A stretch of 64,000 nucleotides of DNA from an uncultured bacterium (GTDB lineage Bacteria > Cyanobacteriota > Vampirovibrionia > Gastranaerophilales > Gastranaerophilaceae). The position numbers and the translations under genes were made by a program. The notes beneath the pieces were generated by a model that searched no databases, was not told the DNA's origin, and saw only the letters and a program-made list of their open reading frames with translations. Position 1 is the stretch's first letter; each line of letters starts with the position of its first letter. Shown here in pieces: positions 25,810-28,305 of this stretch. The DNA is taken from NCBI GenBank assembly GCA_902803165.1, contig CADCOS010000141.1, positions 1,037 to 65,036 on the forward strand, read 5' to 3'.

Positions 25810-28305
25810 ATGGAAAATATATTAGAAATTAAATATAATGTTCAAAAGTCTCTTGAGCGATTCAAAGAACTTTATATAACTGATGTAAACAGCCGGTATA
25901 CTTTATATGCAGCAATCAATTTGATAACCGTTGCAAGTAAAAAAATGCGGATGTATAATCCGACTCCGATTGCAGGCGGGTATCCTCCTTATGATGATGC
26001 GCTATATGAAGAAATGTGTTATTTGGCTAAAAAAGATTATCAAAAACTGCAAGTGTGTACAAATGAAACTCTTATGAAGGGTTCCATAAGTATTTTGCGA
26101 TATGTTGTAGGACAAATGTTTTTAAGAAATGAAAACGAAATATGTAATAAACTCAGCAGCAATATTTTAACAAGTACTATTTTGGATATAAGGGAAGCTT
26201 ATTCATATAAAAATATTCGCTTTTTTGAAAAATATTTTATGCCCTTAAATGCTGATTATCTTGAATATATATTAAATAACGGTAAAAAGACTTCTTTTAA
26301 AAATTGGGGGGCATTATACAGGCACTTGCTTCCTTTTGTATATGATAATGACTTAAAATATTCCGTTTGGAAAGCTATTGAAGTTTTAAGAGATAATTTA
26401 TTAATGGATTTGGGGCTGGGTAAAACTTGGGAATGTTTAAATTCACAAGGCTGGCATAACCATGTAAGAAGTTATTACGGCTTCGAAGGCCCGAGTAATT
26501 ATGGTTCCCAACGCGCGGTTATTATGCTTCATCCCAAAAACATACCGGATCATAAAAATTGTGCGCAGTTAGTTTGTTATTTTCGTGGAGACGTGGTTGA
26601 TTACGGGATTGATATAGGTTTTAATGCAAAAAATTTACCTGAAACAGAAGGCTACAGTGACTGGCAATATATTTCTTCAGATAACAGGATTACTTATGAA
26701 TACGGATATGAAGAAGCTTTATATAAAAATATTGTTGATTATTTCATGTTCACCAAAATTGAAGGAGTACCTATTATTCAAAAAGCGGTTGACTTAAATA
26801 ATGAAATCGCCGAAAAATATACATTTGCTAAAGTTGAGTTTGTTGCAGAAGGTGACGGAAATTACGAAGAGCAAAGTGAATCAAATTTATACAATGATAC
26901 AACCGGTATAAAAGATAATAAACTATCGGAATCTTTGTTAGAAAGTAACGGTGGCGATGGAAAACCTCCTATAGATAATTCTGTTTCTTCTGGTGCGGAT
27001 GATAATGGAGGACATAATAGTCACGATAACTCAGGCGTTGATGTAATAGGGGAAGATATATATGTATCAAATATTTACCCGAATATCAAATATTATGAAG
27101 ACGCTTTATCAAGAAATAAAATAGCGGAAACAATAGTAGATGATTATTTAACTGATCCGAAAATTGAACCGCTTAATATCGGTATTATAGGTGATTGGGG
27201 AAGCGGTAAAACACAAGTAATAAATCTTATCAAGAATAGGCTCCGTGGAATCAAAGAAGGTAAAATACAAACCAAAAATATTAAAGATTTTGTTTGTATA
27301 GATTATGATGCTTGGCAATATAATAACAGTGAGAGAATATGGGCATCGTTGGCTTTAGAAATTATGAACGCTTGCCGTAATAAGGATTTTTGGTTTGATT
27401 TAAAATTTTTATTTAAAAGATTGGGTCGATATTTAAAGGATAATAAAATAATTTTGCCTTTAAAGATGATTTTTGTGGCTGTAATATATCAATTTATAAT
27501 ATTTATGGACGGATTATTTTTACCTTTCGATTGCCATATGTACCTGCTTAGTATTAATTGGTGCCAAAAACTTGCACTTGTAACAATTATAGCGATACTG
27601 CCCGAACTGTTTAAGCCTGTAATCTCGAGTATTGAAATTTCGTTTGCTAAACTGTTTAAGAGTGATAATTGTTCTGAAAGGCTTGGCTTTGAGCATGAAA
27701 CGAAATTTCATATAAAAGAAGCCTTAAAATCGTTGAGCGGGCGTAAACAGAAGCGAATTATTCTTTTTGTAGAGAATTTAGACAGATGTACTTCTTCTAC
27801 AATAAGAGAAATTCTTGATACAATATGTAAATTTTTAGAAATAGTAAGCGAAAAATCAAATGATGATATAAAATATCACGAAGTTGTATTGGAAGATGAA
27901 GATAATGTTCATCCTGAAAACATAAAGGTAGAACTTTTTACTGTTCTTGCAATTGATAAAAACATTGTTTTACAAGCGCTTAAAAAGGAAAATATACCGG
28001 AGGATAAAACATATAATTATTTGGAAAAAATAATAAATATGTTTGTAGAATTACCGCACTATGACAAAATCGAGACATATATTGACAGAATGTATGGTAA
28101 ACAGCGTAACTCTGATATAGAACATATAATAGAAAAATATAAAGAATTTAAATTTCCGTTGCGAAGACTCTCGAATTTTAGGTATTTTGAACATTTGAAG
28201 GCAAAAACATCAAATGAAGAAATCAAATTAGAGGATATAGATAAAATTATATGTCCCGAAGAATGGATTGTAAAAAAGAATATAAATCCAAAAGGAGATG
28301 AGTAA
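25810..28305 (+). CDS. KAP-family P-loop NTPase with unknown N-terminal domain
   Basis: IGIIGDWGSGKT (residue 461 onward), YDAWQY, two hydrophobic helices, FVENLDRC Walker B, YLEKIINMFVELP. Confidence 0.85.
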   Translation: MENILEIKYNVQKSLERFKELYITDVNSRYTLYAAINLITVASKKMRMYNPTPIAGGYPPYDDALYEEMCYLAKKDYQKLQVCTNETLMKGSISILRYVVGQMFLRNENEICNKLSSNILTSTILDIREAYSYKNIRFFEKYFMPLNADYLEYILNNGKKTSFKNWGALYRHLLPFVYDNDLKYSVWKAIEVLRDNLLMDLGLGKTWECLNSQGWHNHVRSYYGFEGPSNYGSQRAVIMLHPKNIPDHKNCAQLVCYFRGDVVDYGIDIGFNAKNLPETEGYSDWQYISSDNRITYEYGYEEALYKNIVDYFMFTKIEGVPIIQKAVDLNNEIAEKYTFAKVEFVAEGDGNYEEQSESNLYNDTTGIKDNKLSESLLESNGGDGKPPIDNSVSSGADDNGGHNSHDNSGVDVIGEDIYVSNIYPNIKYYEDALSRNKIAETIVDDYLTDPKIEPLNIGIIGDWGSGKTQVINLIKNRLRGIKEGKIQTKNIKDFVCIDYDAWQYNNSERIWASLALEIMNACRNKDFWFDLKFLFKRLGRYLKDNKIILPLKMIFVAVIYQFIIFMDGLFLPFDCHMYLLSINWCQKLALVTIIAILPELFKPVISSIEISFAKLFKSDNCSERLGFEHETKFHIKEALKSLSGRKQKRIILFVENLDRCTSSTIREILDTICKFLEIVSEKSNDDIKYHEVVLEDEDNVHPENIKVELFTVLAIDKNIVLQALKKENIPEDKTYNYLEKIINMFVELPHYDKIETYIDRMYGKQRNSDIEHIIEKYKEFKFPLRRLSNFRYFEHLKAKTSNEEIKLEDIDKIICPEEWIVKKNINPKGDE

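Follow-up and report, generated by a model that had tools for sequence, protein, structure and literature searches.

What a lone plus-strand gene might do in the middle of a minus-strand glycan locus was the question raised by the 64,000-nucleotide stretch of DNA analysed here (the window), which comes from a gut Gastranaerophilaceae bacterium. The gene (25810..28305, plus strand) is a complete open reading frame with an ATG start and no internal stops and is predicted to encode a protein of 831 amino acids (P0001), in which an N-terminal domain (the N-domain), a linker and a membrane-inserted KAP NTPase follow one another. An earlier reading made from the sequence alone had described it as the only plus-strand gene amid approximately 16 kb of minus-strand glycan genes, and this was confirmed: between positions 16900 and 32875 all remaining open reading frames with a Pfam domain lie on the minus strand, namely those for UDP-glucose dehydrogenase, an ABC exporter, five GT2 glycosyltransferases, an FkbM methyltransferase, an aldo-keto reductase, two Gly_transf_sug/GT8 proteins and a DUF4422 protein. 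Both short flanks given in that reading were also found. The 3' gap is 17 bp (28306-28322), and the 5' gap is 79 bp if the divergent minus-strand GT2 gene begins at the ATG at 25730, a start that fits the Pfam alignment beginning at residue 25 of the longer open reading frame, and shrinks to 22 bp if it begins at the TTG at 25787. The 79-bp intergenic region (25731..25809) presumably holds both divergent promoters and contains a sigma-70-like match (TAGACA-17-TAAAAT at 25775-25803), while promoter-like sites were not in excess of shuffled sequence (21 versus 19.0 +/- 4.3). A terminator scan around the gene did not rise above shuffled background, and the direct or inverted repeats sought beside it as marks of insertion were AT-rich chance matches only.

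Assignment of the protein to the KAP family was borne out by Pfam, where KAP_NTPase (PF07693) matched at 79.9 bits against a cut-off of 20 bits (E 2.5e-22, residues 436-678); all homologues match the same family. The P-loop NTPase domain extends over about residues 421-790 (27070..28179, plus strand), with its best-matching stretch at 436-678 and conservation in the family alignment reaching R785. The KAP-type Walker A pattern GxxGxGK[ST] is present as GDWGSGKT (residues 461-468, with the lysine at K467; 27190..27213), in which the family shows no variation at W463, G464, G466 or K467, and the hhhhDDLDR-type Walker B is present as FVENLDRC. The sequence-only reading had singled out the latter as odd, and the motif E655-N656-L-D658-R659-C660 does stand at residues 655-660 (27772..27789); the asparagine, however, is typical of the family, whose Walker B reads DNLDRC throughout (N656, L657, D658, R659 and C660 being invariant), and DNLDRC was also seen in one unrelated KAP protein from a genome of the same order. 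Only the glutamate at 655, an aspartate in other members, is peculiar, and it is confined to P0001 and its 90%-identical twin. The invariant asparagine at the second position may mean slow hydrolysis, a caveat to the idea that this protein would work as a nucleotide switch.

Two hydrophobic stretches were located between Walker A and Walker B (27448..27630), at about residues 547-573 (helix 1) and 587-607 (helix 2), with Kyte-Doolittle 19-residue means of up to 2.4; the hydrophobic blocks are kept in all homologues in the family alignment. Membrane helices were called by hydropathy alone, and on that measure the two transmembrane helices claimed earlier are there. According to Aravind et al. 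(2004), the transmembrane helices of KAP NTPases accompany the NTPase domain or lie within it, as PMC13552941 describes for EF_KAP, and P0001 conforms to this. The hairpin (547-607) is a predicted membrane anchor, both flanks of which would be cytoplasmic because a basic stretch (KRLGRYLKDNK) precedes helix 1.

The NTPase is joined to the N-domain by a low-complexity Gly/Ser/Asp/Asn linker (residues 346-420; 26845..27069, plus strand), the acidic character of which had been noted correctly (G, S, D, N and E make up 48 of its 75 residues) and which differs in sequence and length among homologues. A further acidic insert of approximately 22 amino acids (residues 684-706; 27859..27927; about columns 761-790 of alignment A1) occurs only in P0001, in its orthologue from a near-identical strain (P0002 in L002, 90% identity and likewise 831 amino acids) and in P0003 (49% identity). 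The C-terminus had been called short; relative to homologues of 925-941 amino acids it is, as the tail (28180..28305, including the stop codon) lacks the PD-(D/E)xK-like domain of approximately 150 amino acids that these carry, and no recognisable effector domain was identified in P0001.

The remaining part of the protein, residues 1-345, had been described as a globular domain of about 340 amino acids without recognised relatives, and the description held. AlphaFold2 modelled it as one confident domain (pLDDT 85, pTM 0.87), for which no family match was obtained in Pfam, NCBIfam or PDB sequences and no fold relative in PDB or BFVD using Foldseek, with the excised beta core included (best E 0.7-1.1, TM <0.31). 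Profiles of the N-domain, of its core, of the C-terminal domain of the longer relatives and of the whole family likewise returned nothing meaningful from PDB sequences. The first part of the N-domain is all-alpha (residues 1-205; 25810..26424, plus strand; helices 4-200, pLDDT mostly >85), and the second comprises a beta core with closing helices (residues 206-345; 26425..26844, plus strand; strands 235-242, 252-259 and 262-269). Conservation was judged across 30 KAP-, ABC- and McrB-linked copies, representing three NTPase contexts; the conserved residues are L65, R97, F139, Y142, F163, W166, F176, Y178 and L201 in the all-alpha part and P242, H248, Q253, G266, G270 and N330 in the beta-core part, together with a signature loop, F225-x-G227-x-x-N230-x-G232. 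In P0001 the motif GFEGPSNYGSQRAV occupies residues 224-237 and HKNCAQL residues 248-254. The signature loop is the region of lowest confidence in both models (pLDDT 53-64), as might be expected of a loop that binds a ligand or partner.

A loose resemblance of the N-terminal segment to DNA-recognition domains fused to McrB-like proteins had also been suggested, and this proved right in one respect and wrong in another. A profile built from KAP-linked copies only was found to match the N-termini of 70 out of 71 McrB-family proteins with McrC partners, over nearly the whole domain and with E values from 1e-17 to 9e-8 (database size 1.84e9). The matched proteins contain AAA_5, McrB_lid and usually EVE, with an McrC gene following them, and in two (P0038 and P0040) the N-domain is fused directly to the McrB GTPase. 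The profile also matched an AAA_15/21 ATPase (P0037) at E 4e-41, a singleton for which no more relatives of the same fusion were found. The N-domain, which it had been proposed to look for on other effectors, is accordingly present on McrB GTPases and an AAA_15/21 ATPase as well, and the profile matches show that one subgroup of true McrB GTPases has a homologue of it as N-terminal module.

It is unrelated, on the other hand, to the domain with which EcoKMcrB binds DNA. A likeness between the conserved core (VRSYYGFEGPSNYGSQRAVIMLHPK...QLVCYF) and the EcoKMcrB N-domain (ADAM/DUF3578) had been considered, and this identity was rejected by each comparison made: PF12102 gave no match in the organism's own genome or in excised cores (E up to 10), EcoKMcrB residues 1-170 gave null results against the N-domain in hmmsearch and hhalign (probability 0.1%), and no McrB-N chain was among the Foldseek matches of the whole domain or the excised beta core. 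Neither by sequence nor by fold, then, does the N-domain belong to ADAM/DUF3578 (PF12102). Identity with DUF8426 (PF28530) was ruled out by a length comparison, in which DUF8426 is a separate domain of approximately 160 amino acids between the N-domain and EVE in the McrB proteins.

The sequence-only reading had put the gene forward as a candidate single-gene defence system, and we consider it probable (roughly 60%) that P0001, anchored in the membrane and dependent on NTP, acts on its own to defend the cell from phages or other invading DNA. The McrBC subgroup [N-domain]-DUF8426-EVE-AAA_5 (from Methanosarcinales and Bacteroidota) has the N-terminal module in common with it; the module is homologous over about 260 residues and carries F-x-G-x-x-N-x-G ... 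P ... H ... Q-L ... G ... G as a signature in both. The motor of P0001 is a membrane KAP NTPase, whereas that of McrB is a soluble AAA+ GTPase, and P0001 is encoded by one gene, without McrC, EVE or DUF8426, whereas McrBC requires two; no AAA_5 or McrB_lid match and no McrC-like neighbour was found, and P0001 does not belong to McrBC. Domains fused to the N-terminus of McrB serve as its specificity domains (PMC11090510), and a sharper version of the defence reading, with the ligand fixed, can be framed in these terms: P0001 would be a single-chain, modification-dependent (type IV-like) restriction factor in which the N-domain recognises base modification and a KAP NTPase stands in for the McrB GTPase, the short form merely binding or occluding incoming DNA at the membrane. 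The placing of the N-domain like an McrB specificity module (directly on the GTPase in P0038 and P0040), the PD-(D/E)xK-like domain of the long forms and the several relatives that adjoin type I restriction-modification (RM) genes all agree with it; however, the N-domain is without similarity to ADAM/DUF3578, EVE, SRA or YTH readers, P0001 has no nuclease, and an EVE reader is already present in most of the McrB relatives. We regard this version as unlikely. It counts against the defence reading in general that in the McrB proteins with EVE a module other than the N-domain may be reading the DNA, and that no fold relative pointing to nucleic-acid binding by the N-domain was returned by Foldseek.

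Presence of the gene was determined across related genomes. No full-length copy was found in any of 24 congeneric species or 16 genomes of the same order, while the near-identical strain has the orthologue described above; the gene is accessory, and not a core, syntenic gene with a glycan-related role. The family is confined to 9 of about 185,000 species genomes, all of them Gastranaerophilales-type gut MAGs. In both known strains the gene's place within the glycan locus is unchanged, whereas the glycosyltransferases around it have been replaced, an observation that counts against the defence reading in that it could also mean a locus-linked role. The right-flank gene is orthologous in 26 of 26 genomes, the glycan locus does not adjoin it in the five species compared, and the comparison of congeners yielded no clean empty site.

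Seven different neighbourhoods were distinguished among the family, without a conserved partner gene across them. Glycosyltransferases adjoin the gene in the window and in L002. Loci L003-6 and L013 have type I RM and PDC-S54 on one side and a HamA remnant, an integrase and HipA on the other; L022 has type I RM, an intact Hachiman system and an integrase; and L009 has a GajA/OLD-type nuclease and a transposase and also borders sugar-nucleotide and ABC genes. Three further loci (L011, L012 and L017) lie beside UDG and DUF1848, the latter matching a PADLOC RT-associated model, and L024 lies beside YidC and LeuRS. As a family, then, the genes are accessory and have relatives located in defence islands (beside type I RM, Hachiman, GajA/OLD, PDC-S54 and integrase), and this distribution, the absence from all 24 congeners and the lack of a conserved partner support the single-gene defence proposal. 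It is also favoured by the functional constraint on the gene, by the N-domain that P0001 has in common with defence NTPases and by the published KAP defences, all described below or above. The window copy itself lies outside a defence island, with glycan genes as neighbours, and it counts against the proposal that such islands make up no more than four of the seven contexts, the exceptions being the glycan locus, YidC/LeuRS and, less clearly, DUF1848/UDG.

The same observations bear on an improbable alternative, that P0001 is a glycan-locus accessory, namely a membrane NTPase that organises, regulates or gates the glycan assembly or export machinery. Its position in mid-locus with very short flanks, its retention in the second strain while nearby glycosyltransferases were swapped and the sugar-nucleotide and ABC genes bordering L009 would suit such a role, and KAP NTPases have been proposed, as quoted by PMC13552941, as regulators of membrane-associated complexes. 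The gene, however, is on the strand opposite to the entire locus, is missing from 24 of 24 congeners and shares its N-domain with McrB restriction GTPases, and most of its relatives, far from any glycan genes, adjoin RM, Hachiman, OLD or housekeeping genes. Very improbable, in our estimation, is the reading that P0001 plays no part in immunity and serves instead as an NTPase for membrane signalling or housekeeping, or travels as cargo of a selfish element; its relatives would then lie in defence islands only because horizontally acquired genes collect there. A patchy, lineage-restricted distribution, integrase or transposase genes near several loci and the lack of a recognisable effector in P0001 are what such cargo might look like, but the gene, compared with its 90%-identical orthologue in L002, has a dN/dS of 0.15 overall (0.10-0.23 per segment, 0.10 in the tail) and by this measure is under purifying selection, or functional constraint. 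The N-domain, moreover, is found on three classes of NTPase that are typical of defence systems, and KAP fusions have been validated experimentally as defences (PMC13552941).

In the sister clade of 925-941 amino acids the extra C-terminal domain of approximately 150 residues has the invariants D63-G64, K71, E76-x-K78 and Q95 (alignment A4), and in three long-form members it gave sub-threshold Pfam matches to DpnII-MboI (0.0017), PDDEXK_9 (0.0076) and AHJR-like (0.033), with no match among PDB sequences; it looks like a PD-(D/E)xK nuclease and is regarded as a candidate for one. That P0001 might be a decaying, non-functional remnant of such a long form after loss of the nuclease domain is suggested by the missing domain and by the L013 locus, where a long-form gene is split in this manner (759 plus 135 amino acids). 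This is extremely improbable, being largely refuted by the dN/dS values, low in the tail also, and by the phylogeny, in which the long forms group as a single clade (100/100) within the short forms; the short forms are paraphyletic around it and the short architecture is probably ancestral. The 831-amino-acid length is also the same in P0002, and P0003 ends similarly to P0001.

P0001 was further compared with defence proteins of known activity. Single-gene KAP fusions were reported in 2026 to protect against phages experimentally (PMC13552941), and these (EF_KAP) resemble P0001 in being single polypeptides with a KAP NTPase and transmembrane helices, one inside the NTPase domain, in having a large fused domain without known relatives, and in coming from the gut microbiome and from mobile or defence regions. 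The extra region is C-terminal in the validated fusions, whereas in P0001 it is N-terminal and joined by the acidic linker, and the N-domain of P0001 is common to McrB and AAA_15/21 proteins; the likeness to EF_KAP described here is one of architecture. PifA of the F plasmid is a KAP P-loop NTPase that acts alone, as P0001 would; an account of it within PMC13001434 describes exclusion of T7 with membrane lesions, a possible output without a nuclease, and in the same source PifA is reported to have no transmembrane helices. PifA lacks an N-domain comparable to that of P0001, and similarity is not full-length, the PADLOC PifA model matching at the P-loop start only (E 7e-10, residues 430-521, profile positions 16-99 of 720). 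The top match in both PADLOC and NCBIfam was to another KAP-type ATPase, QatA, again at the P-loop start only; at 56 bits against a cut-off of 600 bits, and with QatB, QatC and QatD not nearby, P0001 is not QatA. The PADLOC search that had been proposed as a check thus returned, together with NCBIfam, partial P-loop matches to QatA and PifA only; this, like the lack of a recognisable effector domain in P0001, counts against the defence reading. Single-gene defence proteins of the YobI family also have two transmembrane helices inserted in a P-loop domain, and in them a phage protein triggers ATP turnover with no nuclease required. They belong to another P-loop family, however, and lack an accessory sensor domain, and their mechanism, Mg2+ export and plasmolysis, is not known to extend to P0001.

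If P0001 is a defence protein, the two-helix hairpin within the KAP domain would tether it to the inner face of the membrane, and the 345-residue N-domain would be its sensor. The N-domain probably binds a feature of the invader, since the same module is located at the extreme N-terminus of McrB proteins, the position of target-recognition domains, and is found also on an AAA_15/21 ATPase; candidate ligands are a phage protein and nucleic acid that is foreign or modified. By comparison with PifA, EF_KAP and Tmn, the flexible acidic linker would pass the binding signal on to the KAP NTPase, the nucleotide state of which would switch or assemble the protein. In the sister clade the output is probably DNA cleavage by the added C-terminal domain, while P0001, as the older and shorter architecture, more likely acts through its KAP module, at the level of the membrane or of NTP, as reported for PifA; alternatively, a nuclease may be supplied in trans. 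The position in a glycan locus would reflect co-location of variable, phage-facing genes, and not a part in glycan synthesis.

A wider proposal is offered tentatively, as one that we hold possible and somewhat short of an even chance: that the N-domain represents a new kind of specificity module, one that senses invaders and has its own fold, used on three NTPase chassis (KAP, McrB with McrC, and ABC/OLD-type AAA_15/21), and that the KAP family is a membrane-tethered, single-chain, NTP-dependent restriction-like system in which long forms cut DNA with their own PD-(D/E)xK domain and short forms are nuclease-free.

What the regions fused to the KAP defences validated in 2026 do is a question for which the P0001 family would be a tractable case, as its N-domain folds confidently and carries a sharp conserved signature, and its occurrence on McrB restriction GTPases points to target recognition. 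The existence of variants with and without the nuclease-like tail means that sensing and killing would be separable by experiment. With no Pfam family for the N-domain, about 70 McrB proteins and the KAP family are at present partly unannotated. For the Gastranaerophilales, an uncultured gut lineage, P0001 adds a defence candidate, and its gene illustrates how a gene of defence type can lie inside a surface-glycan locus that recombines.

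The KAP gene (P0001; 25810..28305, plus strand) was found to be an intact ORF encoding 831 amino acids. A Pfam scan of the window placed all other Pfam-bearing ORFs between 16900 and 32875 on the minus strand (UDP-glucose dehydrogenase, an ABC exporter, five GT2 enzymes, an FkbM methyltransferase, an aldo-keto reductase, Gly_transf_sug and GT8 enzymes and a DUF4422 protein), in agreement with the sequence-only reading, which had described a sole plus-strand gene amid minus-strand glycan genes. The short flanks it reported were also recovered: 17 bp to the convergent neighbour downstream and a divergent gap of 79 bp upstream, assuming that the GT2 gene starts at the ATG at 25730. 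G+C is 25-31% across the glycan block versus 33-42% in the core on either side, and GC skew changes sign over the KAP gene, as expected for the opposite strand. A glycan-related role is suggested by position in the locus, with no other pointer, and is considered improbable in view of the opposite strand, the absence of the gene from congeners and the contexts of its relatives.

Two neighbouring GT2 genes are tandem paralogues, with 72% identity over 186 nt (repeat D1; 24533-24718 and 25527-25712), and as such a recombination substrate beside the KAP gene. Directly adjoining the glycan locus (33082-35283, plus strand) is a 733-amino-acid protein without a Pfam match, with conserved termini (~1-115 and 512-732) and a variable middle, a layout which resembles that of a flagellin or filament subunit; 3-7 paralogues occur in each of the 26 genomes of the genus.

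KAP_NTPase was the only Pfam match in P0001 (E 2.5e-22, residues 436-678), confirming a KAP domain joined to an unrecognised N-terminal domain (N-domain; residues 1-345), and every motif previously cited was located at its assigned residues. Walker A (GDWGSGKT, residues 461-468) and the Walker B region (FVE655-N656-LDRC) enclose two strong hydrophobic segments (547-573 and 587-607), while the linker (346-420) is rich in Gly/Ser/Asp/Asn/Glu. The N-domain was modelled by AlphaFold2 as a single confident domain (pLDDT 85.4, pTM 0.87) that is all-alpha over residues 4-200 and ends in a sheet of three strands (235-269) with a pair of closing helices. No sequence relative of it was found in Pfam, NCBIfam or PDB, nor any fold relative in PDB or BFVD using Foldseek with the whole domain and the excised beta core (best E ~0.7, TM <0.31). 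PADLOC and NCBIfam scans returned nothing more than partial matches to QatA and PifA, at the P-loop, and P0001 is a member of neither family.

When 5.8 billion proteins were searched by word index, 31 relatives emerged, almost all of them full-length and 30-49% identical, plus one at 90%. The N-domain is the best-conserved portion of the family alignment, with an invariant block (S221-Y-x-GFEGPSN-x-G ... M-x-HP-x-x-IPDHK ... Q-x-x-C-x-F); the loop bearing its GFEGPSNYG motif is of low confidence in the AlphaFold2 model. The Walker B sequence had been singled out as unusual, which did not hold: Asn656 is invariant across the family, which reads DNLDRC, as does an unrelated KAP from a genome of the same order, and the Asn is therefore no peculiarity of this gene. 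Glu at 655 is confined to P0001 and its 90% twin. Almost all of the named genome matches are to gut MAGs of Gastranaerophilales or 'Cyanobacteria', with 9 loci in ~185,000 species genomes; the window's own ilvD shares 79% identity with its counterpart in a Candidatus Gastranaerophilaceae MAG.

An exhaustive phmmer search with the N-domain over 1.84 billion cluster representatives gave 12 matches in all, which included fusions to an AAA_15/AAA_21 ATPase (P0037), an AAA_5 GTPase (P0038) and another domain (P0039). P0038, from a Methanosarcina genome, is a genuine McrB, carrying AAA_5 and McrB_lid, and an McrC gene follows it. A search with the first 280 residues of P0038 brought up 71 proteins of the McrB family, found in Methanosarcinales and Bacteroidota, the majority with N-domain, DUF8426, EVE, AAA_5 and lid, again with McrC next door. 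The McrB resemblance tentatively noted from sequence is supported: a profile built from KAP-linked copies alone matched 70 of the 71 (E 1e-17 to 9e-8, ~260 residues aligned), and P0037 at E 4e-41 (E values at database size 1.84e9). Conserved in the KAP, McrB and AAA_15/21 contexts alike are L65, R97, F139, Y142, F163, W166, F176, Y178, L201, F225, G227, N230, G232, P242, H248, Q253, G266, G270 and N330. By analogy, the N-domain is called a sensor here because McrB N-terminal fusions are target-specificity modules (PMC11090510). Since most of the McrB relatives also have an EVE reader, its target may not be a modified base.

A suspected likeness of the N-domain core to EcoKMcrB ADAM/DUF3578 failed every test made and was rejected. 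The McrB proteins constitute a sizeable subgroup (for example L014 8001-10745 and L026 2222-5829) in which no Pfam family covers the first 250 residues. P0037 (L016 2393-5981), a singleton among the 5.8 billion proteins as the only AAA_15/21 protein with the N-domain, lies directly downstream of a RhuM-family gene, with a small overlapping ORF after it.

The gene is accessory: a full-length copy was present in 0/24 other species of the genus and 0/16 genomes of the order, and in two of these genomes the only KAP domains are unrelated ones. A 90% orthologue lies at the same place on a contig from a different sample (L002). Between the two strains, the right-hand core is 97.4% identical and the KAP block, taken together with the nearest ends of the flanking genes, 89% identical; the remaining glycosyltransferase genes are swapped for different ones. 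The dN/dS was 0.15 (0.10-0.23 in each segment), and the short protein (N-domain plus KAP) is therefore under purifying selection and no relic. The glycan locus is itself mosaic (window 20117-32875 versus L002 1-8700), most glycosyltransferase genes having given way to others that are unrelated or 40-70% identical, which resembles cassette exchange of the O-antigen type about an anchor that stays in place.

Relatives of 925-941 amino acids (long forms) carry an extra C-terminal domain of ~150 amino acids, in which D-G, K, E-x-K and Q are invariant. Three members gave sub-threshold matches, each to a different PD-(D/E)xK family (DpnII-MboI, 0.0017; PDDEXK_9, 0.0076; AHJR-like, 0.033), making a PD-(D/E)xK nuclease likely. 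In a maximum-likelihood tree built without this domain, the long forms were a single clade (100/100) nested among short forms; the domain was probably gained once, and the window's architecture would be the older, self-sufficient one. That the window's gene is a dead remnant is barely credible given this placement and its dN/dS. In L013 (10001-12778) a long-form gene is broken into two ORFs, one of 759 aa and another of 135 aa over the nuclease-like tail, either a natural inactivation or a two-piece variant.

No gene consistently accompanies the family across the contexts found. In L003-L006 and L013 the relative is flanked on one side by type I RM (HsdM/S/R plus a PDC-S54 gene), and its other side has a HamA remnant, an integrase and HipA, with ZorA beyond them; in L022, a closed MAG chromosome, type I RM is opposite an intact Hachiman pair and integrase. 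Sugar-nucleotide and ABC genes face a GajA/OLD-type nuclease with transposase in L009, a DUF1848 protein (matching a PADLOC RT-associated model) and UDG occur in L011, L012 and L017, and YidC and LeuRS in L024. The pattern is that of a self-contained, horizontally moving gene, often landing in defence islands. The 409-aa gene between hsdS and hsdR in L003 (5836-7065, minus strand) is a full-length match to the PADLOC candidate family PDC-S54 (E 1e-125). The Hachiman pair of L022 (10786-14583) consists of a 289-aa HamA and a 735-aa helicase; in the same island of L003 (13822-14720) and other MAGs only a 136-aa HamA fragment persists, beside a shortened integrase, which indicates that this neighbouring system is decaying.

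Accessory distribution, purifying selection and relatives in defence islands support the proposed single-gene defence candidacy, and a stand-alone defence protein with an N-terminal sensor is the favoured reading (probability roughly 0.6); within it, modified DNA is a rather doubtful ligand. The N-domain would bind an invader feature, and the KAP NTPase, with an intact Walker A and a membrane-type hydrophobic hairpin, would respond by switching or assembling in a nucleotide-dependent manner. In long forms the output would be DNA cleavage; the short form might act at the membrane or NTP level, like PifA (membrane depolarisation and nucleotide leakage, summarised in PMC13001434), or via a factor supplied in trans. 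That the protein is instead a non-immune membrane NTPase or selfish cargo is improbable. The defence model has experimental precedent, since four single-gene KAP NTPases with fused unknown regions guard Enterococcus faecalis against phages; in EF_KAP, the only one dissected, Walker B mutation or deletion of the unknown region abolishes protection (PMC13552941). The window's family shares this single-gene layout, a class known since 2026. What is new here is that the unknown domain is N-terminal, without family or fold assignment, and common to McrB GTPases and an ABC-type ATPase, that a sister clade has gained a nuclease-like tail, and that the family is restricted to Gastranaerophilales.
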